A DNA stretch of 51,173 bases from Eubacteriales bacterium (GCA_045580105.1 JAZNNH010000043.1:1-51173), one strand, 5' to 3'; shown: positions 2,977-26,701, counted from the stretch's first letter. The notes: generated by a model not told the origin, from the letters alone. Numbers and translations are program-made.

Positions 2977-2977
2977 T

Positions 2978-5055: not shown

Positions 5056-5779
5056 TACGTATTTGCATGAAAACGGCTATGCCGCCAGCCGCGCCCTTGC
5101 CGCCAAACTGGTTCGGGGCGGATACGTCTTTTTGGACGGAAAAGAATGCCGCAAGCCCAGCACGCCGGTGCAGGAGGGCGCCTCGGTTCTCATTCAGGAA
5201 AGCCCTCTGACCCGATACGTGTCCCGCGGCGGACTGAAACTGGAAGCGGCGCTGAACGCTTGGCAGATCTCGCCCGAAGGCGCAGTGTGTGCGGATATCG
5301 GTGCCTCCACGGGCGGCTTTACCGATTGCCTCCTGCAGCACGGAGCGGCGAGGGTTTATGCCGTGGATTCGGGAAGCGGTCAGCTTCACCCTGCTTTGCG
5401 GGAAAACGAGCACGTCGTTTCGATGGAAAACGTGAACGCGCGTTTTCTCAACGAAAAAACCTTCGGCAAAGTGGATCTTGTGGTGATGGACGTGTCGTTC
5501 ATTTCGCAAACTCTGCTTTACTCCGCAGTGACGAAGATTTTATCGCCCGGCGGGAAATTTGTTTCCCTTGTCAAGCCCCAATTTGAAGTGGGAAGAGAGT
5601 TCATCGGCTCGGGCGGGATCGTGCGAAGCGAAAAGGCACGGGAGGCGTGTCTGGAAAACATCCGCCTGCAGGCGCAAAAGGCGGGACTGAACCTGCTCTC
5701 CGTCATCCCCTCTCCGATTGCCGGAGGGGACGGAAACGTAGAATACTTGGCTTTATTTGAATTTGAAAATGCGTCCTAA
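5042..5779 (+). CDS. tlyA: TlyA-family rRNA (cytidine-2'-O)-methyltransferase
   Basis: N-terminal S4 domain plus DIGASTGGFTDCLLQHGA SAM motif; TTG start overlapping the dxs end by 14 nt. Confidence 0.85.
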   Translation: MSRLDTYLHENGYAASRALAAKLVRGGYVFLDGKECRKPSTPVQEGASVLIQESPLTRYVSRGGLKLEAALNAWQISPEGAVCADIGASTGGFTDCLLQHGAARVYAVDSGSGQLHPALRENEHVVSMENVNARFLNEKTFGKVDLVVMDVSFISQTLLYSAVTKILSPGGKFVSLVKPQFEVGREFIGSGGIVRSEKAREACLENIRLQAQKAGLNLLSVIPSPIAGGDGNVEYLALFEFENAS

Positions 5780-5795
5780 CGGAAAGGAGATCGGA

Positions 5796-6638
5796 ATGAA
5801 TGTGATCGGAATGTACCCCAATATCAAACGTGATATCGGGCTTTGCTATACCAAAGAAGCGGTCAAGGTGCTCCGCGCCCATCCGGTTTTGATTTTACTG
5901 CCGCAGGAATTGAAGCAGCACTGGCAAGGGGATGCAAGCGGATTGGAATTCGTTCCCGAAGAGGAACTGTTTTCCCGCAGTGACTGTCTTGTCACCTTAG
6001 GAGGGGACGGTACGATCCTTTCGGTTGCCGATTGCGCGGCGGAAGCGGACCTTCCCATTTTCGGAATTAACTTGGGCAGAGTCGGGTTTATGGCAACGGT
6101 GGAGAAAAAAGAAATTGCCAAAATCGATTGTCTGATGACGGGTAATTTTTCCGAATCCTCTCGTATGCTCCTTTCTTGCTACGTCAACGGCAAGGAAGAA
6201 ATGCGCGCGCTCAATGAATTTGTCATTGCGCCGGAGAGAGGGATTCACATGATTGAGCTTTCCCTCTTCGCCGACCGAAAACGGCTTTGCGATTTTCGCG
6301 CAGACGGGCTGATTTTCAACACCCCCAACGGATCGACCGGCTATTCCTTTTCCGCAGGGGGCGCGGTGGTCGATGCGGAATTTGATTCCATCGGAGTCAA
6401 AGCCGTGTCTTCCTATCTTTTGATCAACGCCCATCACATGATCTTTTCCCCGGAAACGGTGTTCACCGCCAAAAACATTCAAAGCGACGGTTCCTCCGTC
6501 TCGGTATGCGCGGACGGCAGACAGTCCGTTCTGCTTTCGCCCGATGACACCGTGAAAATCTGCCGCAGCAAAAAAAGAGTGCGGCTGATTACCGTATCCA
6601 AACGCAGCAATTTAGAAGTATTTTTCCGTAAATTTTAG
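5796..6638 (+). CDS. nadK: NAD kinase
   Basis: GGDGTIL and NTPNGSTGYSFSAGG motifs; start trimmed to MNVIGMY behind SD ggaaaggaga. Confidence 0.9.
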   Translation: MNVIGMYPNIKRDIGLCYTKEAVKVLRAHPVLILLPQELKQHWQGDASGLEFVPEEELFSRSDCLVTLGGDGTILSVADCAAEADLPIFGINLGRVGFMATVEKKEIAKIDCLMTGNFSESSRMLLSCYVNGKEEMRALNEFVIAPERGIHMIELSLFADRKRLCDFRADGLIFNTPNGSTGYSFSAGGAVVDAEFDSIGVKAVSSYLLINAHHMIFSPETVFTAKNIQSDGSSVSVCADGRQSVLLSPDDTVKICRSKKRVRLITVSKRSNLEVFFRKF

Positions 6639-6647
6639 GAGAAAAAG

Positions 6648-7112
6648 ATGAAAAACGATCGCCAACTGAAAATTTTGGAAATCATTGCCGATGAAGAAAT
6701 CCGCACCCAAGAGGAATTGATTTTAGCCCTTCGTCGTTTTGGCTTTGCCGCCACGCAGGCGACGGTATCCCGTGACATCAAGGAATTGCACCTGCAGAAG
6801 ATCACCGCCAAATCCGGCGGTACCAAGTATGCGGTGGAGGGGACTGCCAAGGAAAAGCAAAAGGAAACGGTGGATAAATACCGGAACGTCTTGCATCAGG
6901 TGCTGACCAGCGCCGTGCCCGCCGGTAATATCGGCGTGGTGAAAACTCTTTCCGGCACCGCCAATGCCGCCGCCGCGGCGCTGGAGGCAATGGAATTCGG
7001 CGAGATCATCGGCACGCTTGCGGGCGACGACACGCTTTTGGTGCTCTTTGCCAACGACCGTACCGCCTTTGAGTTTTGCCAGAAGATCAATCATCTCTAT
7101 CTGAAAGATTAA
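6648..7112 (+). CDS. argR: arginine repressor
   Basis: winged-helix ATQATVSRDIKEL and C-terminal GTLAGDDTLLV. Confidence 0.9.
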   Translation: MKNDRQLKILEIIADEEIRTQEELILALRRFGFAATQATVSRDIKELHLQKITAKSGGTKYAVEGTAKEKQKETVDKYRNVLHQVLTSAVPAGNIGVVKTLSGTANAAAAALEAMEFGEIIGTLAGDDTLLVLFANDRTAFEFCQKINHLYLKD

Positions 7113-7127
7113 TTTTGGGAGATCACG

Positions 7128-8837
7128 ATGCTTGCCAATCTTTTCGTGACCGATCTTGCCCTCATCCGACACCTTTCGGTGGATTTTCATGCGGGCTTTT
7201 CGGTGCTGACCGGTCAAACCGGTGCAGGAAAAAGTTTGATTTTAGATGCGCTCAATTTGTTTTTAGAGCAAAAGGGCGCAAAGGAATTGGTGCGCGAAGG
7301 GGCACCGAAACTGGAGGTTTCCCTCTTTTTTGATGAAATTTCACCCGATACGGCACGCCTTCTCTCCGATTATTTTTGCGAGGAGGACGTGGCGGAGGGC
7401 ATCACGCTGATGCGGCAAGTGACCTCCGACGGAAAGAGCACCTGCAAAATCGGTGGGCGCACGGTTCCGTTTTCGCAGTTAAAGAGCGTGGCGCAGCATC
7501 TTTTGTCCATTCAAGGGCAAAACGCCGCCGGTGCTTTGCTCGACGAGAAGAATCACCGTGGGTATTTGGACAGCGCTCTGTCTGATGCCGATCAGCAGGT
7601 TTTGGAAGAATACCGCGCGCTTTATCGCGACTGGGTCAAAGAAAAAAACGCCCTGCAGCAAATGAAAGAAACGGCATCTTCCGGAAAAGAGAAGCTTGCG
7701 CTTTTGGACTTTCAGATGAAAGAAATTGAAAAAGTCAAGCCGAAACGCGGCGAAGAGGAAGCGCTGGAGGCGCGCCTTTCGGCGTTGAAAAATTCCGAAA
7801 AAATCCACGCCGCGCTGTACACCGCCGACCGTGCGCTCTCGGGCGGAGAAAAGGGAAGAGGGGCGGTGTTCCTCTTGGAGGCGGCGGCAGGAAAATTAGA
7901 AACGCTGGGAGAGCCGGACCCCGATTTTGCGCTTGCGGGCGAGCTGTATGAAATTTCCCGTCGGGTCAAGGAGATGGCAGGGGAAGTGTCCTACCGTCTT
8001 TCGCAGGTGGGCGAAGAAGATCCGGCTACCCTTGTGGATAAGATCCAGCGCAGATTGGATCTGCTTTACAAGCTAAAACTCAAATACGGCAGTACCGTAG
8101 AGGAAGTGATTTCCTACTACGAGTCGATAAAACAGCAAAAAGACTTGACGATGACCTTGAAAGATGATATAAAAAGAGCGACCGAGCAGCTTTCCGCGCT
8201 CGAACACAAGGTCAAAGAGGTCGGCGCGAAGCTGACGCGGGCAAGAAAGACGCTGGCAAGGGCGCTGGAAGAAGAGATCGGCTCGGTGCTGACGTTTTTG
8301 GATATGCCCCAAACCCGATTTTTTGTTCAGCTATCCCCGACCGAACCGGGTCCGGAGGGGCTGGAGAGTGTGTCGTTTGCCATTTCTCCGAACCTCGGCG
8401 AGGGCACAAAGCCCTTGGCTCAAATCGCGTCCGGCGGTGAGAGCAGCCGAATTATGCTGGCGCTTCACTTGAAACTGGGACGGGCGAAGGATGCGGACAC
8501 AATGGTCTTTGACGAGGTGGATACGGGAATTTCCGGTGCGACCGCACAAAAGATCGCCTTGGCACTCAAAAAACTGTCGCAGCGCAAGCAGGTTTTGTGT
8601 GTGACGCATTCGGCGCAGGTTTCCACGCTTTCCGACCACCACTATCTGGTGGAAAAAAGCCAAGAAGACGGCAGAACCCAAACTCGGCTGTTTTGTTTGG
8701 ACGAAGAGGGACGGCTTTTGGAAAACGCCCGCTTATTTGCCGGCGCGACCCTGACGCAGGAAGCCAAGAGCGCCGCGGAGGATCTGAGGAGACAAGGGCT
8801 GCGAGAATATGAAAAATGGAAGGATACGATCCTTTGA
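7128..8837 (+). CDS. recN: DNA repair protein RecN
   Basis: Walker A GQTGAGKS, long coiled coil, signature ASGGESSRIMLAL, Walker B MVFDEVDTGISG. Confidence 0.95.
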   Translation: MLANLFVTDLALIRHLSVDFHAGFSVLTGQTGAGKSLILDALNLFLEQKGAKELVREGAPKLEVSLFFDEISPDTARLLSDYFCEEDVAEGITLMRQVTSDGKSTCKIGGRTVPFSQLKSVAQHLLSIQGQNAAGALLDEKNHRGYLDSALSDADQQVLEEYRALYRDWVKEKNALQQMKETASSGKEKLALLDFQMKEIEKVKPKRGEEEALEARLSALKNSEKIHAALYTADRALSGGEKGRGAVFLLEAAAGKLETLGEPDPDFALAGELYEISRRVKEMAGEVSYRLSQVGEEDPATLVDKIQRRLDLLYKLKLKYGSTVEEVISYYESIKQQKDLTMTLKDDIKRATEQLSALEHKVKEVGAKLTRARKTLARALEEEIGSVLTFLDMPQTRFFVQLSPTEPGPEGLESVSFAISPNLGEGTKPLAQIASGGESSRIMLALHLKLGRAKDADTMVFDEVDTGISGATAQKIALALKKLSQRKQVLCVTHSAQVSTLSDHHYLVEKSQEDGRTQTRLFCLDEEGRLLENARLFAGATLTQEAKSAAEDLRRQGLREYEKWKDTIL

Positions 8838-8858
8838 GGATAAAGAAAGGTTAGAGTT

Positions 8859-10079
8859 ATGGAAATTTATGAAGAACTTCAAAAACGCGGATTGATCGCG
8901 CAGGTGACGGACGAAAAGGAGATTCGTGAACTGCTCAACTCCGGCGGAGCTCGTTTTTACATCGGTTTTGACCCCACTGCCGATTCGCTTCACTGCGGCC
9001 ACTTTATGGCACTTTGCCTGATGAAGCGTTTGCAGATGGCAGGCAATAAGCCCGTTGTTTTGCTGGGCGGCGGTACGGGATATATCGGTGACCCCTCCGG
9101 CAGAACAGATATGCGATCCATGCTCACGCCCGAGACCATCGAGCACAACTGTCAGTGCTTCAAGAAGCAGATGGAACGCTTCATTGAATTCGGTGACGAC
9201 AAGGCAATTATGGTGAACAACGCCGATTGGCTCTTGAAGCTCAATTACGTGGAGCTTCTTCGCGAGGTGGGCGCGTGCTTTTCCGTGAACAATATGCTTC
9301 GTGCCGAGTGCTACAAGCAAAGAATGGAAAAGGGCTTGTCTTTCCTCGAATTCAACTATATGATTATGCAGTCCTACGACTTCTATCACCTGTCCAAGGA
9401 ATACGGCTGTAATATGCAGTTCGGCGGCGACGATCAGTGGTCGAATATGCTGGGCGGTACGGAGCTGATCCGCAAGAAGACCGGCAAGGACGCCTATGCG
9501 ATGACCATTACCCTGCTTCTCAACTCCGAGGGTAAGAAAATGGGTAAGACCCAGTCCGGTGCGGTTTGGCTTGATCCCGAAAAAACCTCGCCCTTTGACT
9601 TTTATCAGTATTGGAGAAACGTGGCGGATGCGGACGTACTCAAGTGCATCCGTATGCTCACCTTCCTGCCTTTGGAAGAAATCGAAAAGATGGAATCTTG
9701 GGAGGGAAGCCAGCTTAACGTTGCCAAGGATATTCTCGCCTATGAATTGACCTTGCTCGTTCACGGCGAGGAAGAAGCGAAAAAGGCAAGAGAAGCGTCC
9801 AAGGCGCTGTTCGGCGGTTCGGGCTCGAACGCCAATATGCCCAGCTTCGCTCTGACGGATGCAGATTTCACCGACGGCGCCATCAACGTGATGGATCTGA
9901 TGGTGAAAGCCGGTCTTTGCCCCTCTAAGGGCGAAGCCAGACGTTTGGTTCAGCAGGGCGGTGTTTCCGTGAACGATGAAAAGATCACCGATATTGCCAA
10001 AACCTTCGACAGCGCACAGTTCGACTCCGAATTCATCCTGCGCAAGGGCAAGAAAGTCTTTATTAAGATTACGAAATAA
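8859..10079 (+). CDS. tyrS: tyrosine--tRNA ligase
   Basis: HIGH-type HCGH, KMSKS-type KMGKT, C-terminal S4 domain; only 21 nt after recN. Confidence 0.95.
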   Translation: MEIYEELQKRGLIAQVTDEKEIRELLNSGGARFYIGFDPTADSLHCGHFMALCLMKRLQMAGNKPVVLLGGGTGYIGDPSGRTDMRSMLTPETIEHNCQCFKKQMERFIEFGDDKAIMVNNADWLLKLNYVELLREVGACFSVNNMLRAECYKQRMEKGLSFLEFNYMIMQSYDFYHLSKEYGCNMQFGGDDQWSNMLGGTELIRKKTGKDAYAMTITLLLNSEGKKMGKTQSGAVWLDPEKTSPFDFYQYWRNVADADVLKCIRMLTFLPLEEIEKMESWEGSQLNVAKDILAYELTLLVHGEEEAKKAREASKALFGGSGSNANMPSFALTDADFTDGAINVMDLMVKAGLCPSKGEARRLVQQGGVSVNDEKITDIAKTFDSAQFDSEFILRKGKKVFIKITK

Positions 10080-11269: not shown

Positions 11270-12031
11270 TTAACCTGCCAGACCGCGCATTTTAAGGCGG
11301 AGATTGTCGGCGATCATCGCCACAAATTCGGAATTGGTGGGTTTTCCCTTAGTGTTTTGCACCGTGTATCCGAAAAAGGAGTTGAGCATATCCACGTCGC
11401 CTCGGTCCCAAGCCACTTCAATGGCGTGACGAATGGCGCGTTCCACGCGCGAGGAGGTGGTGTTAAACTCCTTTGCCACGGAGGGGTAAAGGGTTTTGGT
11501 GACCTCGGAAATGATGCGATGATCCCGCACGACCATCATAATCGCGCATCGGAGGTACTGATAGCCCTTGATGTGCGCGGGAATTCCCACCTGATGAATG
11601 ATGCGGGTCACTTGCGCCTCTAAATCAAATTCATCTTCCAAACGGAATTTTTCTTCGCTGCAAACCTGATGAATCTTTTCCGCCAGCGCTTCGTAGTCAA
11701 AGGGCTTGAGAACACAGCTGGAAATCCCGTTTGCAAACGCATCCTCCAATACCGCCTTGTTGTTCACCGCCGTCACCAAAATAAACTTCGGTGCGCGCAG
11801 CTTTAAGTCGCGCCGTACCTCCCGAATCAAGCTTGCCAGATCATACCCCGGAAACCAAAGGTCCAGCAAAACCACGTCGGGCTTTAGGTTTTTAATCGCA
11901 AGAAGCGCTTCTCCGCCGTCGCCGCTGTCACCGACCACGCAAAAGCCCAAATTGGCAAGACTCTCGCGACAAACAAAACGGAAATCATTTCCGGAATCAA
12001 TAATGTATACTTTTTCTTTTGGCTCTTTCAT
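11270..12031 (-). CDS. spo0A: sporulation master regulator Spo0A
   Basis: receiver domain plus signature C-terminal domain ([25 protein letters not shown]..., [31 protein letters not shown]); start trimmed to MKEPKEK behind SD ggaaggg. Confidence 0.95.
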
Positions 12032-12081
12032 ATTCAACCCTTCCTTTTCAAAAAATACGTTCTTTCCCTTTCGGCGTTCTA

Positions 12082-12110
12082 ATTTTACCAATAATTGGTA
12101 ATTTTTGCAA
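12082..12110 (-). promoter_or_regulatory. candidate spo0A sigma-A promoter with embedded 17-nt palindrome
   Basis: minus strand TTGCAA (12110-12105), 17 nt spacer, TAAAAT (12087-12082). TTACCAATAATTGGTAA at 12085-12101 fills the spacer. Two more TTACCAATTTT copies lie at 12129-12139 and 12139-12149. Confidence 0.45.
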
Positions 12111-12232
12111 TACCTTTTGGAAAGAAAATTACCAATTTTTACCAATTTTGTAGAAGTGAACAAAATCGCTTTGCTTTTTGTGTGTTTTGTTCCAAATACC
12201 GGGGGAGAAAAGGCGTGGCTTTTGCCAAAGTT

Positions 12233-12477: not shown

Positions 12478-12506
12478 TTGACTTTACGGCAAAAAAGTGT
12501 TAATCT
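12478..12506 (+). promoter_or_regulatory. promoter of the T-box operon
   Basis: TTGACT (12478-12483), 17 nt spacer, TAATCT (12501-12506) preceded by TGT. Confidence 0.55.
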
Positions 12507-12512
12507 ACCTAT

Positions 12513-12750
12513 GATATAAAACACGAGGAAGAAGACAAGTACCTCTTCGACTTTTTTGCAAGAGAGCTGCCGGTTGGTGCAAGGCAGTCGAAAAGAGAGG
12601 AGGGAATACCCTTTGGAGTGGCTTTTCCGAAACAAAGTAGGAAAAGACGGGTGCGCCCGATACTGCGCTTTGAGACTGTCCTATGACAGTGAATATGAGG
12701 TGGTACCACGATTCTGTCGTCCTTGTGCTTATAGCTCAAGGGCGTTTTTT
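12513..12750 (+). promoter_or_regulatory. T-box riboswitch leader, probable Tyr (UAC) specifier
   Basis: AGUA 12538-12541; AGAGAG bulge 12561-12566; distal loop GGUUGGUGCAA 12572-12582; GAA-UAC 12604-12609; K-turn halves 12522-12529 and 12615-12620; T-box sequence AAUAUGAGGUGGUACCACG 12692-12710; terminator CGUCCUUG/CAAGGGCG plus U6 at 12718-12750. Confidence 0.85.
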
Positions 12751-12774: not shown

Positions 12775-14406
12775 ATGGCGATTACTGATTTTTTGGAGCG
12801 CAACGCGCGCCTGTACGGACGGGAAACGGCTCTGGTGGAGCTCAATCCTACCGAGGAACGCGATCTGGGCGTGACTTGGCGCGATTTTAATCTGATTGAA
12901 GGAACTGCCGATGCCCCCTATCGCAGAGAATACACTTGGAGCGATTTTGACCGCAGAGCCAACCGCTTTGCCAATCTTCTTTTGAGCCGCGGATTTGAGC
13001 GCGGCACGAAGGTTGCCATTCTTTTGATGAATTGCCTCGAGTGGCTTCCCATCTATTTCGGCATTTTGAAGGCGGGCTGCATTGCGGTTCCCATGAATTT
13101 CCGCTATTCGAGCGCTGAGATCAAATACTGTTTGGAGCTGGCAGACGTATCCGCGCTGGTTTTCGGTCCGGAATTCATCACGCGGATGGATCCGGTCGTT
13201 CCCACGCTTTCGGAAGTCAAAACCTTTTTCTTCGTCGGAAAATCCACCCCGGCTTATGCCGAGGACTGTCTGAAGATCATGGGCTTTTGCTCCTCTTCCG
13301 CCCCGCCTGTCAAGCTCGAGGACGAGGACGTTGCCGCGATTTATTTTTCTTCGGGTACGACGGGATTTCCCAAGGCGATCCTGCACAATCACAGAGCGCT
13401 CGTGTCCTCTTGTGAAACCGAGCAGAACCACCACGGACAAACGCGCTCTGACGTCTTCCTTTGCATTCCGCCGCTGTATCATACGGGCGCGAAGATGCAC
13501 TGGTTCGGCTCACTCCTTTCCGCCGGCCGCGCGGTTCTGCTTCGCGGCGTCAAACCGGAATGGATTTTGCGCGCCGTGACGGAAGAAAAATGCACCATCG
13601 TATGGCTTTTGGTGCCGTGGGCGCAGGATATTCTGGATGCCATCGAGTCGGGAAAAATCAATCTCGAGGATTATTATCTGGATCAGTGGCGCTTGATGCA
13701 CATCGGCGCGCAGCCCGTGCCGCCGAGCTTGGTGCGCCGCTGGCAAAAGATTTTCCCGCGCCACGAGTACGATACCAACTACGGTCTTTCCGAATCCATC
13801 GGTCCTGGCTGTGTACATCTGGGTGTGGAAAACGTACATAAGGTGGGCGCCATCGGAAAACCCGGCTATCTGTGGGAAGCCAAGATCGTCGTGGGCGATC
13901 GCATTGCCGAAAAGGGCGAAGTGGGCGAGCTTTGCGTCAAAGGCCCCGGCGTGATGCTTTGTTATTATAAAAATCCGCAAGCCACCGAAGAAGTGTTAAA
14001 AGACGGTTGGCTCTATACCGGCGATATGGCAAAAGAAGACGAAGACGGTTTTCTGTATCTGGTCGATCGCAAGAAAGACGTTGTCATTTCCGGCGGAGAA
14101 AACATTTATCCCGTTCAGATCGAGGACTTTTTGCGCGGCCATGAAAAAATCAAGGACGTTGCGGTCATCGGTCTTCCCGACACCCGTCAGGGAGAGATCT
14201 GCGCGGCGATCATTGAACTCAAAGACGGCGAAGATTGCACGCAGGAAGAAATCGATGAATTTTGCACCGGTCTTCCTCGCTACAAGCGCCCCCGCAAGGT
14301 CTTTTTCGACAAGGTGCCCCGTAACCCCACCGGAAAGATCGAAAAGCCCGCTCTTCGTGAAAAATACTGCAAGGGTCGGCTGGTAGAAGCGCAAATCAAC
14401 GGATAG
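12775..14406 (+). CDS. AMP-dependent acyl-CoA synthetase/ligase (substrate unknown)
   Basis: YFSSGTTGFPKAILHNH AMP-binding motif, YGLSE, GWLYTGDMA, PRNPTGKIEK; start trimmed to MAITDF behind SD gaaaggaag. Confidence 0.85.
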   Translation: MAITDFLERNARLYGRETALVELNPTEERDLGVTWRDFNLIEGTADAPYRREYTWSDFDRRANRFANLLLSRGFERGTKVAILLMNCLEWLPIYFGILKAGCIAVPMNFRYSSAEIKYCLELADVSALVFGPEFITRMDPVVPTLSEVKTFFFVGKSTPAYAEDCLKIMGFCSSSAPPVKLEDEDVAAIYFSSGTTGFPKAILHNHRALVSSCETEQNHHGQTRSDVFLCIPPLYHTGAKMHWFGSLLSAGRAVLLRGVKPEWILRAVTEEKCTIVWLLVPWAQDILDAIESGKINLEDYYLDQWRLMHIGAQPVPPSLVRRWQKIFPRHEYDTNYGLSESIGPGCVHLGVENVHKVGAIGKPGYLWEAKIVVGDRIAEKGEVGELCVKGPGVMLCYYKNPQATEEVLKDGWLYTGDMAKEDEDGFLYLVDRKKDVVISGGENIYPVQIEDFLRGHEKIKDVAVIGLPDTRQGEICAAIIELKDGEDCTQEEIDEFCTGLPRYKRPRKVFFDKVPRNPTGKIEKPALREKYCKGRLVEAQING

Positions 14407-14417
14407 GAGTTGGGTGT

Positions 14418-15998
14418 ATGTTCATTAAAATTTCCATGCTGATCGTGTTTTTTTCCGTGATGATCGGCGTCGGCTTTTCCTGCCGCAAGCACGCCACGGA
14501 CGTGAACGGCTTTGTTTTGGGCGGCAGAAGCGTCGGCCCTTGGCTGACGGCGTTTGCCTACGGCACGTCTTATTTTTCCGCCGTGGTCTTCGTGGGCTAT
14601 GCCGGCCAGTTCGGCTGGAAATACGGCATTGCCGCCACGTGGGCGGGCATCGGAAACGCCCTGATCGGATCGCTCATGGCTTGGGCGATTTTGGGCAGAA
14701 GAACCAGAGTTATGACCCAGCATCTGGATTCGGCTACGATGCCGCAGTTTTTTCAGGCACGTTTGGATTCCAAGGGCTTAAAGCTTGCGTCCTCGGCTCT
14801 GATTTTCATTTTTATGATCCCGTATACCGCCTCGCTTTATAACGGCTTGAGCCGCCTTTTTGGAATGGCGTTCGGCATCGATTACACTTGGTGTGTCGTT
14901 GCGATGGCAATCCTGACGGGTGTTTACGTGACGGTGGGCGGCTATATGGCAACGGCGGTTAACGATTTTATTCAGGGCATTGTGATGCTCTTCGGAATCG
15001 TTTTGGTGATTGCCGCGGTTCTGCATACAAAGGGCGGCTTTACCGCCGCGCTCGATGCGCTTTCCCGCGTTTCCGATCCCACGGTTTCCTCCTCCCCCGG
15101 TGCGTTTGCCTCGTTCTTCGGACCGGATGGGAAGGGACTTGCGGGCGTGGTGATCCTCACTTCCTTGGGAACGTGGGGACTTCCGCAGATGGTGCAGAAG
15201 TTTTACGCCATCAAAAGCGAAAAGCAGATTAATAAAGGTATGATCATTTCCACCCTCTTTGCTCTGGTGGTTGCCGGCGGATGTTATTTTCTCGGCGGCT
15301 TCGGACGGCTGTTTTGCGACGGCGCCCTCGTGGCGAGGGAAGGGTACGATGCCATCATTCCCGCCATGCTCGAGCCCTTGCCCGATTTTCTGATCGCCAT
15401 TGTGGTGATCTTGGTTCTTTCGGCTTCCATGTCCACGCTTTCTTCCCTTGTGATGACCTCCAGCTCGACCTTGACGCTGGATTTTCTCAAGGGAAACGTG
15501 ATCCGGAATATGAAAGAAAAGACCCAGCTCTTGCTTTTGCGACTGCTTGTGGTTGTGTTTATTGCCATTTCCGCGGTCATCGCCATTTATCAAAGTTCGG
15601 CGGGCGGTGACGGCGTGAAGTATATTGCCCAGTTAATGGGCATTTCTTGGGGTGCGATGGCGGGCTCGTTCTTAGCTCCGTTTCTTTACGGCTTGTATTG
15701 GAAAGGGCTCACGCGCGCCGCGGTTTGGGTGAATATGCTCTTTTCCACCGCCGTGATGGTGGGCTGCATTTTGCCCGGTGTGAAGGAAATGTATCCTCCC
15801 TTCCTGCAATCGCCCATCAATGCCGGCGCGTTTTGTATGCTCGCAGGGCTTGTGATTACCCCGCTTGTCAGTTTGGTGACCAAAAAAACGGACAAAGCAA
15901 AAATCGAATCGGTGTTCTCTTGCTATGAACGCATGGTCACGGTTACCGTGAAAGATTCCATCGGAGAAGCCGCAGAAAGAAAAGGAGAAAGCAAATGA
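14418..15998 (+). CDS. sodium:solute symporter (SSS) family transporter
   Basis: 526 aa polytopic membrane protein with SSS-like N-terminal helices (GGRSVGPWLTAFAYGTSYFSAVVFVGYAG). Confidence 0.75.
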   Translation: MFIKISMLIVFFSVMIGVGFSCRKHATDVNGFVLGGRSVGPWLTAFAYGTSYFSAVVFVGYAGQFGWKYGIAATWAGIGNALIGSLMAWAILGRRTRVMTQHLDSATMPQFFQARLDSKGLKLASSALIFIFMIPYTASLYNGLSRLFGMAFGIDYTWCVVAMAILTGVYVTVGGYMATAVNDFIQGIVMLFGIVLVIAAVLHTKGGFTAALDALSRVSDPTVSSSPGAFASFFGPDGKGLAGVVILTSLGTWGLPQMVQKFYAIKSEKQINKGMIISTLFALVVAGGCYFLGGFGRLFCDGALVAREGYDAIIPAMLEPLPDFLIAIVVILVLSASMSTLSSLVMTSSSTLTLDFLKGNVIRNMKEKTQLLLLRLLVVVFIAISAVIAIYQSSAGGDGVKYIAQLMGISWGAMAGSFLAPFLYGLYWKGLTRAAVWVNMLFSTAVMVGCILPGVKEMYPPFLQSPINAGAFCMLAGLVITPLVSLVTKKTDKAKIESVFSCYERMVTVTVKDSIGEAAERKGESK

Positions 15999-17716
15999 AA
16001 AAATTGATGCTCGGCAACGAAGCGGTCGCCCGCGGTCTGTATGAGGCAGGGTGCAGCTTTGTTTCCAGTTACCCCGGTACGCCCAGTACCGAAATTACCG
16101 AGTGTGTCGCGCGCTACCCGGAAGTGTATGCCGAATGGGCGCCCAATGAAAAGGTTGCGATGGAATCCGCCTTCGGTGCAAGCTTGGCAGGCAAACGCAG
16201 TTTTTGCGGAATGAAACACGTCGGCTTGAACGTGGCGGCAGACCCGCTGTTTACCATGTCGTATACCGGTGTAAACGCCGGCTTTGTGATCGGTGTGGCA
16301 GACGACCCCGGCATGCATTCTTCTCAGAACGAGCAGGATTCCCGTCACTACGCAAGAGCCGCTAAAATGCCGATGCTCGAGCCCGCAAACTCCGAGGAAG
16401 CACGCAATTTTACCAAGATTGCGTTCGAAATTTCCGAGCAGTTCGACACGCCCGTTCTTCTGAAAATGTGTACGCGTATTGCCCATTCCCAGAGCATTGT
16501 GGAAGAGGGCGAGCGGGTGGAAGTGAAAAAAGAATACGAAAAGAACGGTCAAAAATACATTATGATGCCCGGCAACGCCAAGCGCCGTCACCCCATTGTG
16601 GAACAGCGCACCCGTGATCTGGTCGCGTTTGCGGAAGAGGACGACATCAACCGCATCGAAGATGGAAAAAATAAGAAAATGGGTATCATCACCTCCTCGA
16701 CTTCGTATCAGTACGTCAAAGAGGTGTTCGGAGACGAATATCCCGTTCTCAAACTGGGTATGATCTGGCCTTTGCCCGAACAAAAAATCATCTCCTTTGC
16801 CAAGAGTGTTGAAACGCTTGTGGTCGTAGAGGAGCTGGACTCCTTTATCGAGGAGCACTGCCGCAACCTCGGACTGGAAGTGGTCGGCAAGGAACTGTTT
16901 TCTCCCGTCGGCGAATTCAGCCAAAACGTTGTTGCCAAGGCGCTGGGCAAAGAAGAAGCGGTCGGCACGGCACTTTCGGAAGAAATTCCGCAAAGACCGC
17001 CCGTGATGTGTGCCGGCTGTCCCCACAGAGGACTGTTTTATACCTTAGCGAAAAATAAGATCACCGTTTTGGGTGATATCGGTTGTTACACGCTCGGTGC
17101 CGTGCCGCCGCTTTGCGCACTCGACAGCACCATTTGTATGGGCGCGAGCGTTTCGGGTCTGCACGGCTTTGTGAAAGCCCTCGAGGGCGCCGCCGACGGC
17201 AAGACGGTCGGTGTCATCGGCGATTCGACCTTTATGCATTCGGGTATGACCGGTCTTGTGAATATTGCCTATAACAATTCCAATGCCACCGTCATCATTT
17301 TGGATAACTCCATTACGGGTATGACCGGTCACCAGCAGAATCCCACCACCGGTAAGAACTTGAAGGGCGATCCTGCCGCCGCGGTCAATCTGGAAGAGCT
17401 TTGCCGCGCCATCGGCATCCGCCGCGTTCGCGTGGTCGATCCCTATCAGCTTTCCGAAACGGAAAACGCAATCAAAGAAGAATTGGCAGCTGCCGAGCCG
17501 TCTGTGATCATTTCCAGAAGACCCTGCGCACTGTTAAAATACGTCAAGCACGCAGGTCCCATCAAGGTCGATTCCGACAAGTGCCGTTCCTGCAAGGCCT
17601 GTATGAAGATCGGCTGTCCTGCCATCAGTATGAAAGACGGCAAGGCCGTGATTGATAACACCCTTTGTACCGGTTGCGGTGTTTGCACTCAGCTTTGTAA
17701 ATTCGGCGCACTGTGA
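15995..17716 (+). CDS. iorA: indolepyruvate (arylpyruvate):ferredoxin oxidoreductase alpha subunit
   Basis: MKKLMLGNEAVARGLYEAG...SSYPGTPSTEI, TPP motif GDSTFMHSG, C-terminal 2x[4Fe-4S] CRSCKACMKIGCP and CTGCGVCTQLC. Confidence 0.9.
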   Translation: MKKLMLGNEAVARGLYEAGCSFVSSYPGTPSTEITECVARYPEVYAEWAPNEKVAMESAFGASLAGKRSFCGMKHVGLNVAADPLFTMSYTGVNAGFVIGVADDPGMHSSQNEQDSRHYARAAKMPMLEPANSEEARNFTKIAFEISEQFDTPVLLKMCTRIAHSQSIVEEGERVEVKKEYEKNGQKYIMMPGNAKRRHPIVEQRTRDLVAFAEEDDINRIEDGKNKKMGIITSSTSYQYVKEVFGDEYPVLKLGMIWPLPEQKIISFAKSVETLVVVEELDSFIEEHCRNLGLEVVGKELFSPVGEFSQNVVAKALGKEEAVGTALSEEIPQRPPVMCAGCPHRGLFYTLAKNKITVLGDIGCYTLGAVPPLCALDSTICMGASVSGLHGFVKALEGAADGKTVGVIGDSTFMHSGMTGLVNIAYNNSNATVIILDNSITGMTGHQQNPTTGKNLKGDPAAAVNLEELCRAIGIRRVRVVDPYQLSETENAIKEELAAAEPSVIISRRPCALLKYVKHAGPIKVDSDKCRSCKACMKIGCPAISMKDGKAVIDNTLCTGCGVCTQLCKFGAL

Positions 17717-17732
17717 GAAAGGAGTAACTCAG

Positions 17733-18305
17733 ATGAAAACGAAAAATGTGATGATTGTCGGCGTGGGAGGACAGGGAAGTCTTCTGGCGTCCAAACTCTT
17801 GGGAAAACTCCTTTTGAGCCGTGGGTACGACGTGAAGGTATCGGAAGTGCACGGAATGAGCCAGCGCGGCGGAAGCGTGGTAACCTACGTTCGTTTCGGC
17901 GACGTGGTCTATTCTCCCGTGATTGATAAGGGGCAGGCCGATTTTATCGTGTCGTTTGAATTGCTGGAAGCGGCGCGCTGGACGGAGTATTTGCGAGAGG
18001 GTGGCGTGATTGTTTCCAACACCCAAAAAATCAATCCGATGCCGGTGATTATCGGGTCGGCACAGTACCCCGAAAACTTAGAGGGAAAGATTCGCGATGC
18101 CGGAATCCATCTGGAAACGCTCGATGCACTGGCGCTGGCAGAACAAGCCGGTAGTGCCAAGGCGGTGAATATCGTCTTGATGGGCAAGCTCTCCCGATTC
18201 TTTGATTTTTCTAAGGAAGAATGGATGGATGCCATTGCCCAAAGTGTACCTGAAAAGTTTTTGGAACTCAATCAAAAAGCTTTCCTGATGGGAAGAGAAG
18301 CATAA
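17733..18305 (+). CDS. iorB: indolepyruvate:ferredoxin oxidoreductase beta subunit
   Basis: MIVGVGGQGSLLASKLLG and SEVHGMSQRGGSV are typical of IorB / the 2-oxoacid oxidoreductase gamma domain; start trimmed. Confidence 0.85.
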   Translation: MKTKNVMIVGVGGQGSLLASKLLGKLLLSRGYDVKVSEVHGMSQRGGSVVTYVRFGDVVYSPVIDKGQADFIVSFELLEAARWTEYLREGGVIVSNTQKINPMPVIIGSAQYPENLEGKIRDAGIHLETLDALALAEQAGSAKAVNIVLMGKLSRFFDFSKEEWMDAIAQSVPEKFLELNQKAFLMGREA

Positions 18306-18317
18306 GAGGAGATTGAT

Positions 18318-19616
18318 ATGAAACGCTATTATCAACCCGAAATCGAAACCGCCTCGCAGGAACAGATCCTCGCTTGGCAAAATGAACGCCTTATCAAACA
18401 GGTTCAGCACGTGTGGGACAACGTTCCGTATTACCGCAAAAAAATGGAAGAAAAAGGCGTGACTCCTGCTGACATTACCGGAGTCAAAGACCTTCACAAA
18501 TTGCCGTTTCTGACCAAAGCAGACCTGCGCGACGCCTATCCTTACGGCCTGATGGGAAAACCCCTCAAGGACTGCGTGCGCATTCAGTCTACCTCCGGCA
18601 CCACCGGCAAGCGCGTGGTTGCGTTTTACACCCAAAAGGATCTTGACCTTTGGGAGGATTGCTGTGCCAGAGCCATTGTGGCTGTGGGCGGAAGTGAAGA
18701 AGACGTGTGTCAGGTGTGCTACGGCTATGGTCTGTTTACCGGCGGTCCGGGCTTAAACGGCGGCTCTCACAAGGTCGGCTGCTTGACGCTCCCGATGTCT
18801 TCGGGTAATACCGACCGTCAGCTTCAGTTTATGACCGATTTGGAAGCGACCATTATTTGCTGTACCCCCTCTTACGCAGCTTATCTTGCCGAGTCCATTC
18901 AAGAAAAAGGACTGCGCGACAAGATCAAGCTTAAAGCCGGCATTTTCGGGGCAGAGGCGTGGAGCGAAGAAATGCGCCGCGATATTGAATCCCAGCTCGG
19001 CATCAAGGCCTATGATATTTACGGCTTGACGGAAATTTCCGGCCCCGGCGTTGCCTTTGAATGTGAAGCGCAGACGGGAATGCACATCAACGAGGATCAC
19101 TTCATTGCAGAGATCATCGATCCCGATACGGGCGAGGTGTTGCCTGAGGGAGAAAAGGGCGAATTGGTGTTCACCTGTATTACCAAAGAAGCGTTCCCGC
19201 TTCTTCGTTACCGCACCCGCGATATTTGTGTTTTGACCCGCGAGCCCTGCCCCTGCGGAAGAACCCACGTGAAAATGTCCAAGCCCATGGGCAGAAGCGA
19301 CGATATGCTCATCATCAAGGGCGTGAACGTATTCCCCAGCCAGATCGAAACCGTTCTGTTGGAACAGGGGTATCCTGCCAACTATCAGATCATTGTGGAT
19401 CGCGTGAACAACGCCGATACCTTTGAGGTGCAGGTGGAAATGACACCCGAAATCTTCTCCGATTCCCTTTCGAATCTGGGTGCGTTGGAAAAAGGCCTTG
19501 TGAATGCACTCCATTCCATGCTCGGCATTTACGCCAAGGTGAAATTGGTTGCACCTAAGAGCATTGCCCGCAGTGAAGGCAAAGCGGTTCGAATCATTGA
19601 CAATCGTAAAATTTAA
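18318..19616 (+). CDS. paaK: phenylacetate-CoA ligase family (PaaK-like) enzyme
   Basis: 432 aa, STSGTTGKRVV, YGLTEISGPG, PLLRYRTRD; the usual partner of iorAB. Confidence 0.85.
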   Translation: MKRYYQPEIETASQEQILAWQNERLIKQVQHVWDNVPYYRKKMEEKGVTPADITGVKDLHKLPFLTKADLRDAYPYGLMGKPLKDCVRIQSTSGTTGKRVVAFYTQKDLDLWEDCCARAIVAVGGSEEDVCQVCYGYGLFTGGPGLNGGSHKVGCLTLPMSSGNTDRQLQFMTDLEATIICCTPSYAAYLAESIQEKGLRDKIKLKAGIFGAEAWSEEMRRDIESQLGIKAYDIYGLTEISGPGVAFECEAQTGMHINEDHFIAEIIDPDTGEVLPEGEKGELVFTCITKEAFPLLRYRTRDICVLTREPCPCGRTHVKMSKPMGRSDDMLIIKGVNVFPSQIETVLLEQGYPANYQIIVDRVNNADTFEVQVEMTPEIFSDSLSNLGALEKGLVNALHSMLGIYAKVKLVAPKSIARSEGKAVRIIDNRKI

Positions 19617-19629
19617 GGAGGAAGAAACG

Positions 19630-20064
19630 ATGAAGGGTATCCATCAGATTTCTGTTTTTATCGAAAACAAAAAAGGTTCTCTTTCTGAAATTACTCGCCT
19701 TTTGGCAGATAGCAAAATTAACTTGCGTGCCATCTCTATTGCAGAAAGTGCCGATTACGGTGTGCTTCGTCTGATTGCCGACGATGCCGAAAAAGCAACC
19801 TCCGTTCTTCTTTCCCACGGATTCATTCTTTCCATGACGCCCGTAACGGTCATTTCCGTGCCGGATGAGCCCGCCGGTCTTTCGCAGGTTCTTAATATTC
19901 TGACGCAGGCAGGGGTCGATATTGAATATATGTATTCTCTGTTTACCCACCAGAACGGAAAAGCGTATATGGTGTTCCGTATTTCCGATCAAGAGGAATT
20001 TGAAAAAATGGTCACCGGGCAAAACCTTTCGGTGACCACCAAAGAAGAACTGGGCTTGATTTAA
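19630..20064 (+). CDS. tandem ACT-domain protein
   Basis: two ACT-like units (ISVFIENKKGSLSEITRLLADSKINL and VISVPDEPAGLSQVLNILTQAGVDI); start trimmed to MKGIHQ behind ggagg. Confidence 0.8.
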   Translation: MKGIHQISVFIENKKGSLSEITRLLADSKINLRAISIAESADYGVLRLIADDAEKATSVLLSHGFILSMTPVTVISVPDEPAGLSQVLNILTQAGVDIEYMYSLFTHQNGKAYMVFRISDQEEFEKMVTGQNLSVTTKEELGLI

Positions 20065-20076
20065 GTTATAGAGCAC

Positions 20077-20293
20077 GCAGGGCTGCCGCCCCGCACCCTG
20101 CAGTTCCTTTCTTTGGAAAGATGGGAACCAAAGAAACTTTCATAATAAAAAGTAAAAAAAGGACTGATTATTTCAGTCCTTTTTATTATTTTTATATTTC
20201 CCCATTCGAGTTTTTCTTTGCTTACTTTCTTTTTTCAAAAAGAAAGTAAGAAGCTTTCTTTGGCTTACCTTTCTTTTCCAAAAGAAAGGTAAG
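20077..20293 (+). repeat. modular palindromic repeat element, copy B
   Basis: head hairpin gcaggg...ccctgc 20077-20101; L hairpin 20103-20128 plus caaagaaactttc; terminator GGACTGA-ttatt-TCAGTCC 20161-20184; R hairpins 20221-20250 and 20264-20293. Confidence 0.85.
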
Positions 20294-23398: not shown

Positions 23399-23572
23399 TT
23401 TCGCTCCTTGAAAAAAAGGTAATATTGTGTTAATATAGCAAGTGTACCATAAAGAAGGAGTTTCGTCAAGAGACGAAAACCACGGAAAGAAATGAAAAAA
23501 GATGCTGACACGGCATCAAAAATCTGATAACATAGTTTTCGAAACCAGATGATGGGAAAAGGAGAAACAACA

Positions 23573-25264
23573 ATGGCTAAAAAATACAAATTTTTACCTT
23601 ACAATGAAGTATCCAAGATTGATCGAATTTGCGATATTCTGACGCAAGCGGAGGCAGAGTGTCCGGAGAAGATTGCCTATCGGCACAAAAACGCCAAGCA
23701 AGAAGTTTTGGACGTAACGTTCCGCGAATTCGGTGTAGACGTGCGAGCACTGGGAAGCGCCCTTTCGGATTTGGGAGTAGACTGTGAGCACATCGCCTGC
23801 GTGGCGGATAACAGTTACAACTGGATCAACGTATATCTTTCCGTTCTTTGCTCTCGCGGTGTGTACCTGCCGGTGGATAAGCTCTTGCCTCCCGAAGATA
23901 TGATGTATGTTCTTACCTCGGGTGATGCCAAGGTGATTTTCTATTCCAAGCAGTTTGAAACCCTGTTCCACGAAAAGGAAGAAGAGCTTTCCGAGGTCAA
24001 ATACTTTATCGGATTCGACCGCGAAGAAGACGAGGGAAAATTTCTTTCCTTTGCCCGGCTCAAAGAAAAAGGCAAAGAGCTTTTGGCGTCCGGCTACGAC
24101 GTTTACACTTCGAATATGACCTCGTCTGACATCAAGGCGCTGAAAATGTTGGTTTACACCTCCGGTACGACCGGCATTGCAAAAGGTGTTATGCTCTCGG
24201 AAGAGAACTTGGTTTGTGAAGTATACCACGGCTTGCAGGTGGCAGACGTTTTGACGGTCGGTCTTTCCGTGTTGCCGTATCACCACACCTATGAAGCGGT
24301 GGTTGGAATTTTGGTGTACTTGCACCGCCACGCGGTCACCTGTATCAACGACAGTCTTGCCGCGATCCTGAAGAACTTTAAAATCTATCAGCCGGACTTC
24401 ATTTATCTCGTGCCCGCGTTCCTGGAAATGTTCTACAAAAAGATTCGTGCGACTATGGAAGAGCAGGGCAAGTGGGAAACCTTCCAAAAGGGCGCTAAAA
24501 TTTCAAAATTCCTTTTGAAATTCGGCATTGACATACGCAGAAAGCTTTTTGCTCAGCTCCACGAAACCTTCGGCGGAAAATTGGAACTGATGGTTGTGGG
24601 AGCCGCGCCCCTTCGTCCGGAAGTCATCAATTTCTTTGAAACCGTCGGTATCACCGTTTGTCAGGGCTACGGTATTACTGAATGCTCTCCTCTGGTGAGT
24701 GTAAACCGAAACAATAAATACGCCGATCCCGAAACCGTAGGTCTGCCTCTGCCTTGTCTTGAGGTTCGCATTGACAATCCCGGAGAAGACGGAAACGGCG
24801 AGATTTGCGTTCGCGGAAAAACGGTCATGATGGGCTATTACAAAAATCCCGAAGTGACCGAAAAGGCAATGGTCGACGGCTGGTTCCACACCGGTGACTT
24901 GGGTCACATTGATGAAAGAGGATATCTTTCCATCACGGGCCGTTGCAAGAACCTGATCGTTTTGGATAACGGAAAGAACGTATACCCCGAAGAACTTGAA
25001 AACTACATTATGAATATCCCTTACATTGCGGAAGCTGTGGTAAAGGGGGAAAAAGAAGAAAGCGGAAAAACCGTGGTTGTGGCAGAGGTCTTCCTTTCCA
25101 AGGATCACGTGAAGGAAATGGGCAAATCGCCCGACGAGGCAAAAATTCTTGCCGATATCCGCGCACTGACCGGTGAACTTCCGATGTACAAGCAGGTGAC
25201 CCGTGTTGTCATTCGCGAAAACGAATTTGAGAAAACCACCACCCGCAAGATCAAGAGAACTTAA
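23573..25264 (+). CDS. long-chain acyl-CoA synthetase (AMP-forming)
   Basis: YTSGTTGIAKGVMLS, GYGITECSP, GWFHTGDLG, TRKIKR; start trimmed to MAKKYKF behind SD aaaaggag. Confidence 0.85.
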   Translation: MAKKYKFLPYNEVSKIDRICDILTQAEAECPEKIAYRHKNAKQEVLDVTFREFGVDVRALGSALSDLGVDCEHIACVADNSYNWINVYLSVLCSRGVYLPVDKLLPPEDMMYVLTSGDAKVIFYSKQFETLFHEKEEELSEVKYFIGFDREEDEGKFLSFARLKEKGKELLASGYDVYTSNMTSSDIKALKMLVYTSGTTGIAKGVMLSEENLVCEVYHGLQVADVLTVGLSVLPYHHTYEAVVGILVYLHRHAVTCINDSLAAILKNFKIYQPDFIYLVPAFLEMFYKKIRATMEEQGKWETFQKGAKISKFLLKFGIDIRRKLFAQLHETFGGKLELMVVGAAPLRPEVINFFETVGITVCQGYGITECSPLVSVNRNNKYADPETVGLPLPCLEVRIDNPGEDGNGEICVRGKTVMMGYYKNPEVTEKAMVDGWFHTGDLGHIDERGYLSITGRCKNLIVLDNGKNVYPEELENYIMNIPYIAEAVVKGEKEESGKTVVVAEVFLSKDHVKEMGKSPDEAKILADIRALTGELPMYKQVTRVVIRENEFEKTTTRKIKRT

Positions 25265-25447: not shown

Positions 25448-26701
25448 TTATTTATTATAAATTCGCTCGATTTTGGTGAAGCCGTCTTCCATCAGCCGAT
25501 CAATTTGGAATTTGGCATTCTTTTTCAAAGGAAGAACGGTGACGGTGTTGCCCTCGGCACGCAGGGCTGCTGCCTGATCGAAGATCTCTTGCATCTTTTC
25601 CGCCGAAGCACCGGTTTCGACCAAGAATGCGATGCCCTCTTTGGCGTCCTCGTTTTTGACGGGGTGATCGCGAAGAATGGTGATAATGCGTTCAAATCCG
25701 ATGGAAAAACCGCAGGCAGGAACTTTTTGACCGGAGAATTTTCCGATCATTTCGTCGTATCTGCCGCCGCCGGCAATGGAAAAGTTGTATTCGTCCAGTT
25801 TCACTTCGAAAATCGTTCCCGTGTAATAGCCCATACCGCGCACGAGGGTCGGATCAAATTTTAAGGTCACGTTTTCACCCAGCGATTTTCTCACACAGGA
25901 AAGAATGGTATCCAGTCCGCTCGGAACGGACGGGGAGAGAAGCTCTTCCGGAAGCTTGGCACAGAAATCGGCAACACAGGGGGCATTGTTTTCAAAGAGT
26001 GCAAGATAGGAATCCACCGCTGTTTCTTCCAGACCCAGCGAAAGAAGCTCGGCTTTCACGCCCTCGACACCGATTTTGTCGAGTTTATCCAAAATAATGA
26101 AGACTTCTTCCAAAACCTCTTCGGAAAAGCCGGCAGACAGAGCCATCGCGCGCAAGATGCGGCGGTCGTTTACGTGAATGGTGATGTTTTCGATTCCCGT
26201 TCCGGCAAGAAGTTTGGAGAGCATATTACCGGTTGCGCCCACCAATTCAATTTCTGCCAAAATGGAGGCATCTCCGAGAATATCAATATCGCATTGGGTA
26301 AACTGACGGAATCTGCCTTTTTGGGGCTGATCGGCGCGCCATACGTTGCCGATCTGAAGTGCCTTGAAAGGCGCGGGGAGGGTGGCGCTGTTGGCGGCGT
26401 AGAAGCGGGACAGCGGCAGGGTCAGATCATAGCGCATGCCCGAATCGGCAAGATCGGAACCGGTTTCCAGCGCACGGGAAAGAGCCGCACCGCGTTTGAG
26501 CACCTTAAAGATCAGCTTTTCGTTTTCGCCGCCCTGTTTTCCGGTCAGGTTTTCGATGTGCTCCATACAAGGCGTTTCAATTTCGCGGAAGCCGTAGGAA
26601 GAATAGGTACTGCGAATTTTTGCCAATACACTCTGACGCAGTGCCATCTCCTGAGGTAAAAAGTCGTTCATTCCCTTCACAGGGGTCTTTACAAATCCCA
26701 T
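25448..26701 (-). CDS. hisS: histidine--tRNA ligase
   Basis: class II motifs, e.g. VWRADQPQKGRFRQFTQCDID and GGGRYD. Confidence 0.95.
   Translation of the reverse strand: MGFVKTPVKGMNDFLPQEMALRQSVLAKIRSTYSSYGFREIETPCMEHIENLTGKQGGENEKLIFKVLKRGAALSRALETGSDLADSGMRYDLTLPLSRFYAANSATLPAPFKALQIGNVWRADQPQKGRFRQFTQCDIDILGDASILAEIELVGATGNMLSKLLAGTGIENITIHVNDRRILRAMALSAGFSEEVLEEVFIILDKLDKIGVEGVKAELLSLGLEETAVDSYLALFENNAPCVADFCAKLPEELLSPSVPSGLDTILSCVRKSLGENVTLKFDPTLVRGMGYYTGTIFEVKLDEYNFSIAGGGRYDEMIGKFSGQKVPACGFSIGFERIITILRDHPVKNEDAKEGIAFLVETGASAEKMQEIFDQAAALRAEGNTVTVLPLKKNAKFQIDRLMEDGFTKIERIYNK

Follow-up and report, generated by a model that had tools for sequence, protein, structure and literature searches.

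T-box leader RNAs raise the expression of the genes behind them when a specific tRNA is uncharged, and their targets normally boost the supply of the corresponding amino acid. In this study we describe a T-box leader in a contig of 51,173 nucleotides (nt) from an Eubacteriales bacterium (GCA_045580105.1 JAZNNH010000043.1:1-51173; this whole stretch is called the window below), where it precedes an operon containing iorA and iorB, the genes that encode the alpha subunit and the beta subunit of indolepyruvate:ferredoxin oxidoreductase (IOR). The leader resembles that of Bacillus subtilis tyrS, which also acts on transcription, has UAC as its specifier and UGGU in a bulge suited to a tRNA with A73, and contains an antiterminator helix that competes with a terminator. 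In contrast, the targets of the leader in the window are ligase, IOR, ligase and ACT-protein genes, in place of a synthetase gene, a lone transporter gene or an operon of classical biosynthesis. An aromatic T-box serving amino acid supply outside de novo synthesis has also been described for tryptophan uptake by trpXYZ in Streptococcus suis, where a UGG leader controls an ABC importer (PMC9382623).

The enzymes have precedents as well. In the archaeon Methanococcus maripaludis, exogenous aryl acids feed an IOR-dependent aromatic amino-acid pathway, according to PMC4162585, which cites the genetic work of Porat 2004. Both IOR subunits are used there as we propose for the window, although no T-box or RNA switch is involved and the evidence is genetic, whereas ours is regulatory and comparative. 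Rumen anaerobes make phenylalanine from phenylacetate, according to work cited in PMC7356843. In Bacteroides, an IOR-linked AMP-forming ligase activates phenylacetate, 4-hydroxyphenylacetate and indoleacetate, and the authors suggest a biosynthetic role (PMC13285125, 2026). That cluster, like ours, has iorAB beside an AMP-forming ligase; unlike there, where no T-box or regulatory evidence is reported, the window adds a leader, and also a FadD-like ligase, a symporter and an ACT protein. Finally, 2-oxoacid:ferredoxin oxidoreductases that act on arylpyruvates or arylacetyl-CoA are shared with HpdDEFG-HpdJ-HpdK of Clostridium scatologenes, IOR plus acyl kinase of Clostridioides difficile and the gut acetogens. 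Those oxidative fermentation clusters have a phosphate acyltransferase and kinase or ADP-forming ligases for ATP gain, whereas the T-box-gated ones have AMP-forming ligases only.

We found no published link between a T-box and IOR: the surveys of Wels 2008 and Sun 2013 are without such targets, while an earlier mention in other surveys (Vitreschak 2008, Gutierrez-Preciado 2009) is not excluded. A literature search revealed no relevant joint context of T-box riboswitch and phenylacetate either. The original prediction had known of neither a genetic nor a T-box assignment for this route. Its second half still stands; the first does not, given the M. maripaludis genetics as cited in PMC4162585. 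As an RNA the leader is an ordinary T-box, and its targets encode known enzymes; what is new is the bacterial T-box link, the pathway idea being known already.

At the level of sequence, expression of these operons is tied to aromatic shortage: 25 leaders of one IOR clade have a Tyr or Phe specifier, and 20 of another have a Trp one. We consider it probable, at roughly 70%, that in the window a tyrosine T-box gates the salvage of aryl acids through IOR running in reverse. The reverse-IOR part is well supported but unproven; it is indicated by specifiers that are only Tyr, Phe or Trp, by the apparently separate acquisition of T-boxes in two clades and by AMP-forming ligases in each cluster. When tyrosine is plentiful, charged tRNA-Tyr would be unable to hold the antiterminator, so that the terminator forms and transcription ends before the first gene, lig1. 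Uncharged tRNA-Tyr(GUA) would pair its anticodon with the UAC in Stem I and its free ACCA end with UGGU (12701-12704), holding the antiterminator and letting the polymerase read into the operon. An aryl acid, taken up by a carrier that is possibly the operon's symporter, would then be converted by two AMP-forming ligases to phenylacetyl-CoA or 4-hydroxyphenylacetyl-CoA. IorAB with reduced ferredoxin would carboxylate this thioester reductively to the arylpyruvate, and an aminotransferase encoded elsewhere would yield Tyr or Phe. A plausible role for the ACT-pair protein would be to sense the end product. Aryl-acetic acids are abundant in the gut and rumen.

The T-box leader and its specifier

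The original prediction had placed a T-box leader before six tightly packed genes and had implied an aromatic tRNA. Both claims hold: Rfam recovers the complete RF00230 model just 5' of lig1, far above its gathering score of 93 bits, and the codon columns read UAC (Table 1). No other Rfam match was found in the window, even at E<=0.01. Judged by its sequence, the leader is near certainly a canonical transcription-attenuating T-box that reads tRNA-Tyr. All Stem I motifs align to RF00230 and are kept in 23 aligned leaders; the specifier is flanked by the S-turn GAA (12604-12606) on its 5' side and by C12610 on its 3' side. Folded alone, the antiterminator gives the expected bulged helix (-6.0 kcal/mol), and its UGGU is able to pair with the tRNA 3' end ACCA (discriminator A73), which fits bacterial tRNA-Tyr and tRNA-Phe. 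The terminator hairpin is stronger (-15.2 kcal/mol, z -5.5, with 0 of 200 shuffles folding as well) and its 5' arm shares sequence with the antiterminator's 3' arm, hence the default state of the leader would be 'off' as in classical T-boxes. An equivalent hairpin with T-tract is present in all orthologous leaders, and the promoter pair TTGACT...TGnTAnAnT is kept in the aligned ones; a generic promoter scan did not have the leader promoter among its listed sites.

Scanning with lig1, one genome per species, gave 80 loci with 77-85% identical lig1. Searches with the window leader (nhmmer) and with a 12-mer T-box core located a T-box at the same place in 22 of them, and these were combined with the window and with two metagenomic loci (L081 and L110). 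The specifier column holds UAC in 14 leaders, the window included, and UUC (Phe) in 11, and nothing else. The survey thus found only Tyr or Phe in the 24 other loci. All ten orthologous leaders sent to Rfam (nine and L110) exceed the gathering cutoff with 112-126 bits, and UAC or UUC stands in the codon columns of every leader with a printed alignment.

The two specifiers do not form separate lineages. A neighbour-joining tree built from lig1 mixes Tyr with Phe leaders in sister pairs (the window, Tyr, with L001, Phe; L004 with L003; L065 with L050), and L009 and L036 lie inside a Phe group; this requires at least four flips between Tyr and Phe. Each time the change leads to the other aromatic codon, the only one seen among the six single-base NNC neighbours of UAC (a rough argument, without a statistical test). 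In the model system of Grundy and Henkin, a UAC-to-UUC mutation reportedly retargets the B. subtilis tyrS T-box to phenylalanine. The leaders described here hold its natural counterpart, at least four times over, and such laboratory-type retargeting has occurred repeatedly in nature.

We regard it as highly improbable that the specifier is misread (the -1 frame, for instance, gives AUA/AUU, Ile, and the +1 frame ACC/UCC, Thr/Ser) or that the leader has decayed and lost its regulatory role. Such a view could appeal to the C that takes the place of a purine after the codon, and to the window having no cognate tRNA gene for a pairing check; there is no tRNA gene in the window at all, and no gene for tRNA-Tyr, -Phe, -Trp or -Met in any locus examined. 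However, UAC and UUC occupy the Rfam codon columns, and L080 carries a 1-nt insertion before the codon that leaves UAC in place in the canonical frame and destroys the -1 reading, which rules out Ile. The +1 frame mixes Thr and Ser codons and would require several tRNAs, and was rejected as well. Five leaders do have the canonical purine, four as GAA-UAC-A or AAA-UAC-A and L003 as GAA-UUC-A, and the tyrS T-boxes of related loci are also arranged GAA-UAC-A. Moreover, 24 diverged leaders share the promoter, the motifs of Stem I, the T-box bulge and the terminator.

The sole T-box of the window gates the ior operon and not the synthetases that T-boxes usually control: tyrS (8859-10079, + strand, 21 nt 3' of recN) and hisS (25448-26701, - strand) both have no T-box, even at Rfam E<=0.01.

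A second IOR clade with tryptophan leaders

When metagenomes were scanned for a T-box core joined to GNEA[IV]A, the conserved beginning of IorA, 25 matches were obtained, 17 of them real T-box-to-iorA junctions. One of these is L110; the rest belong to a second clade, whose IorA is 38-40% and whose ligase is 41-44% identical to that of the window. A protein search places this clade in Sporomusa acidovorans, Pelosinus, Ruminiclostridium, Pseudobacteroides and uncultured Clostridiales. Of seven homologues retrieved by protein, independently of the T-box pattern, five have a T-box with UGG (81-90 bits, E 1e-16 to 1e-18): the cultured S. acidovorans, a Pelosinus metagenome-assembled genome (MAG) and three others. 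The most distant two, from Ruminiclostridium cellulolyticum and Pseudobacteroides cellulosolvens (65-68% identity), have no T-box at E<=1e-3.

The T-box lies directly 5' of iorA in 20 loci of this clade, with the specifier UGG (Trp), which stands in the specifier column of all 15 readable leaders from the pattern scan. A three-gene operon of iorA, iorB and a PaaK-type ligase gene is present in the 10 loci that are long enough, and also in L112 and L115-L118. Among 16 leaders (L087-L118) given to Rfam, five score 81-90 bits, 10 stay below the gathering score and L102 alone passes it; most leaders of the clade are therefore missed by standard Rfam annotation. Other frames were considered and rejected. 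AUG (Met, -1) is ruled out by L116, which reads G-UGG-G. GGN (Gly, +1) would leave no unpaired base before the helix and need several isoacceptors, and the UGGU bulge misfits U73, the discriminator of bacterial tRNA-Gly.

Two distant IOR clades thus appear to have come under T-box control separately, a view based on the low IorA identity, on differences in operon content and on leaders too diverged to be linked by a single-sequence search, and not on a leader phylogeny. We lean slightly towards the view that T-box gating of operons with IOR and an arylacetate-CoA ligase is a widespread, undescribed regulon for aromatic amino-acid salvage that arose at least twice. Its two origins appear to lie in gut and rumen Oscillospiraceae (Tyr/Phe, with one-base flips) and in Sporomusaceae and other anaerobes (Trp).

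Some neighbouring genes in this clade deserve mention. In P. cellulosolvens (L114 9940-12954) the iorA-iorB-ligase genes, which lack a T-box, are followed by genes for a TrpP-type energy-coupling factor (ECF) tryptophan transporter, an ATPase and a T component. In R. cellulolyticum (L113) an MGS-like-domain gene (8455-8916) is inserted between iorB and the ligase gene, and a tetrahydrofolate riboswitch (11456-11563, 94 bits) lies about 1.2 kb 3' of the ligase gene and about 90 nt 5' of an ECF S-component gene (11655-12179). In L116, a flavin mononucleotide riboswitch (651-789, - strand, 119 bits) precedes a dihydroxybutanone phosphate (DHBP)-synthase (ribB-type) gene on the opposite strand, about 2.2 kb upstream of the ior cluster.

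The operon and its relatives

Six genes follow the leader on the + strand with intergenic gaps of 11, -4, 16, 12 and 13 nt. The tight packing agrees with the original prediction, whose range of -4 to 17 nt becomes -4 to 16 nt. No convincing terminator was found within the operon, and one transcription unit unites iorAB with two AMP-forming ligases, the gene content looked for in a salvage route. The proposed identities of IorA and IorB are borne out by NCBIfam models, with 718.3 bits for IorA (TIGR03336 equivalog, cutoff 650.9) and 278.6 bits for IorB (NF005325, cutoff 230). Lig1 has PRK06187 as its top NCBIfam model, below cutoff (393 against 476 bits), and FadD13, FadD5, feruloyl-CoA synthetase and 4-coumarate-CoA ligase as its nearest solved structures. 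The ACT-pair protein matches an uncharacterised protein of 144 amino acids (PDB 2F06, E 1.4e-25), and in NCBIfam it weakly matches a prephenate dehydrogenase model over a C-terminal stretch of the latter (positions 287-354 of 367).

Table 1. Features of the T-box leader and the ior operon, in positions of the window
Feature	Position	Strand	Basis
Promoter: -35 TTGACT (12478-12483), 17-nt spacer, extended -10 TGtTAATCT (12498-12506)	12478-12506	+	sequence reading
T-box leader RNA, RF00230, full length	12517-12727	+	132.3 bits, E 2.9e-29, model positions 1-219 of 219
Stem I: K-turn (GA) motif, specifier loop, AG bulge, distal loop GGUUGGUGCAAG	12523-12619	+	Rfam alignment columns
AG bulge AGAGA	12561-12565	+	Stem I
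Specifier codon UAC (Tyr)	12607-12609	+	codon columns of Rfam model
Antiterminator helix with 7-nt T-box bulge UGGUACC (12701-12707)	12694-12727	+	Rfam structure line
Intrinsic terminator: hairpin (12718-12744) and U6 tract (12745-12750)	12718-12750	+	fold
lig1, putative AMP-forming acyl/aryl-CoA ligase, FadD/4CL-like	12775-14406	+	PF00501, PF13193
Sodium:solute symporter (SSS family)	14418-15998	+	PF00474
IorA, IOR alpha subunit (thiamine pyrophosphate (TPP), 2x[4Fe-4S])	15995-17716	+	Pfam POR_N, TPP_enzyme_C, Fer4
IorB, IOR beta subunit	17733-18305	+	PF01558
PaaK-type arylacetate-CoA ligase (AMP-forming)	18318-19616	+	PF14535 (PaaK-type C-terminal domain), PF00501
Tandem-ACT (ACT-pair) protein, small-molecule-binding fold, candidate amino-acid sensor	19630-20064	+	PF19571 ACT_8
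Bidirectional terminator hairpin ending the operon	20156-20184	.	12-bp stem, T-tracts on both strands

Around the operon, the opposite strand carries spo0A just upstream of the leader (11270-12163, -), and a run of xseA-dxs-tlyA-nadK-argR-recN occupies 1582-8837; together they mark the contig as chromosomal and its source as a spore-former of the Clostridia. A third AMP-binding ligase gene (571 amino acids, PF00501 only) is found 3.5 kb 3' of the operon (23549-25264, +).

The 80 lig1 loci all come from gut and rumen MAGs (sheep, goat, deer, buffalo, mouse, human) labelled as Oscillospiraceae/Faecousia or Lachnospiraceae, and gene order is the same in nearly all of them. Four of the T-box loci (L001, L003, L004 and L035) have no symporter gene, so that the regulated core there is ligase, IOR, ligase and ACT protein. 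In L110 (1840-3960) a T-box with UUC (112 bits) separates lig1 from iorA, and lig1 is served by a promoter and a short leader of its own; where the switch sits in the operon thus varies. Taken together, these loci leave IOR with the PaaK-type ligase as the constant regulated core.

Between the Oscillospiraceae and the Lachnospiraceae type of operon, identity is 77-85% for lig1 and 82-91% for the PaaK-type ligase, against 70-83% for IorA/IorB, 58-79% for the symporter and 51-69% for the ACT protein. The higher conservation of the ligases suggests strong constraint or lateral spread of the cluster. Lachnospiraceae operons that lack the T-box have a thioesterase gene behind a plain sigma-70-like promoter (for example L018 8565-8963, L012, L024 and L026). 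In L019 (8254-8956) a PaaI-like thioesterase gene, its product 48% identical to the L018 protein, lies immediately 5' of the T-box, an arrangement that may stand midway between the two types of operon.

At least 17 Lachnospiraceae loci have, directly 3' of the ACT gene, a T-box with UAC-A and then tyrS (L012 about 16500-18097, L018 16409-17744 and 15 more; GAA-UAC-A, bulge UGGUAAC). By tblastn the encoded protein is about 75% identical to the tyrosyl-tRNA synthetase of the window, and trpS was rejected as its identity; in L018 the frame is cut to 337 amino acids, a probable assembly error or frameshift. This adjacency is a further link to tyrosine and not a control of the ior operon. In two other loci the ACT gene is followed by genes for a SCIFF peptide (PF13165) and a radical-SAM/SPASM maturase (L082 6586-8254, L083 6038-7706), while in L081 (12699-14084) the maturase gene alone was called.

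Direction of flux and what it would mean

The original prediction had argued that induction by an uncharged aromatic tRNA fits only the reverse direction of IOR. The specifier survey supports this interpretation, the direction of flux itself being proposed on that basis. An operon that is catabolic, running from arylpyruvate over arylacetyl-CoA to arylacetate and induced on starvation as a shift to aromatic fermentation for energy or reducing power, seems to us quite improbable. IOR and its relatives are usually read as oxidative in Clostridia and Bacteroides, and a PaaI-type thioesterase gene at the head of the Lachnospiraceae operons would suit such a function. However, a cell that broke down the keto acid of an amino acid while the tRNA for that amino acid was uncharged would run even shorter of it, and the specifiers are limited to Tyr, Phe and Trp, the three for which IOR handles the keto acid. 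The partner enzymes point the same way. Many homologues in IOR and VOR clusters adjoin a phosphate acyltransferase and kinase or ADP-forming ligases, and Pta/Ack-type or ADP-forming enzymes have been tied to catabolic oxidoreductases, AMP-forming ligases to a possible biosynthetic IOR (PMC13285125). An AMP-forming ligase is present in every T-box-gated cluster, and no Pta/Ack-type enzyme (phosphotransacylase or kinase) or ADP-forming ligase was found in the T-box-gated loci whose gene calls were read (L081, L112, L115-L118).

It is also possible, though in our view unlikely, that the T-box is real and Tyr-specific and that the relevant product is the symporter, which would take up Tyr or Phe, while IOR and the ligases work oxidatively or buffer keto-acid and CoA pools; regulation would then have no bearing on reverse flux. 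Amino-acid transporters are commonly under T-box control (PMC2494555), the symporter's best sub-threshold matches are carriers of proline and pantothenate (PutP, 202 bits, and PanF, 147 bits; NCBIfam), and a thioesterase gene heads the Lachnospiraceae versions. The T-box nevertheless gates ligase, IOR, ligase and ACT protein in the four loci without a symporter gene, and it lies directly 5' of iorA in L110 and in 20 of 20 Trp-clade loci, with no transporter in the unit in the 14 such loci whose downstream genes were examined. AMP-forming ligases, furthermore, favour thioester formation (PMC13285125).

Several observations count against aryl-acid salvage by reverse IOR as we propose it. We infer the direction of IOR here from regulation only, and the substrates and the roles of the symporter, lig1 and the ACT protein are likewise proposed from sequence. 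The substrate of lig1 is unassignable from its matches. The second ligase, originally expected to be of the PaaK type, does have PF14535; it falls short of the PaaK equivalog (TIGR02155, 493.7 bits against a cutoff of 646.3) and is therefore called PaaK-type and not PaaK. Membership of the symporter in the SSS family is confirmed, whereas the suggested likeness to ActP/MctP is not: the curated models for ActP (29.6 bits, cutoff 1099) and MctC (55.8 bits, cutoff 670) are far from reached, and a protein closer to PutP and PanF than to known monocarboxylate carriers may import an amino acid. No aminotransferase gene is present in the operon or elsewhere in the 51 kb window. In the leaders, the base after the codon is mostly C, in the window too, and not the usual purine; B. 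subtilis tyrS differs in this respect. The bulge is UGGU in every Trp-clade leader, and bacterial tRNA-Trp has G73 as its discriminator, so that a G-U wobble would be needed; the experimentally verified S. suis leader, by contrast, has UGGC (PMC9382623). Lastly, 58 of the 80 lig1 loci, all of the Lachnospiraceae type, have no T-box within 700 nt (seven checked with Rfam agree), nor does L084, and 55 of these 58 operons begin with a PaaI/4HBT-type thioesterase gene that would be usable in either direction.

Gut iorAB clusters are usually counted as producers of phenylacetate, the precursor of phenylacetylglutamine, of 4-hydroxyphenylacetate, the precursor of p-cresol, and of indoleacetate. A switch activated solely by the uncharged form of the matching tRNA gives regulatory evidence for a reverse, acid-removing pathway in these lineages, and metagenomic counts of iorAB would need a different reading. 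It might be possible to study the Trp version in culture, as Sporomusa acidovorans carries it, as does a Pelosinus MAG. If aryl-acid salvage by reverse IOR is true, the observations of reductive carboxylation made in the rumen in the 1960s, and the classical labelling results from there, would gain genes and a control in bacteria, and the carriers of these operons would be regulated net consumers of phenylacetate, 4-hydroxyphenylacetate and indoleacetate.

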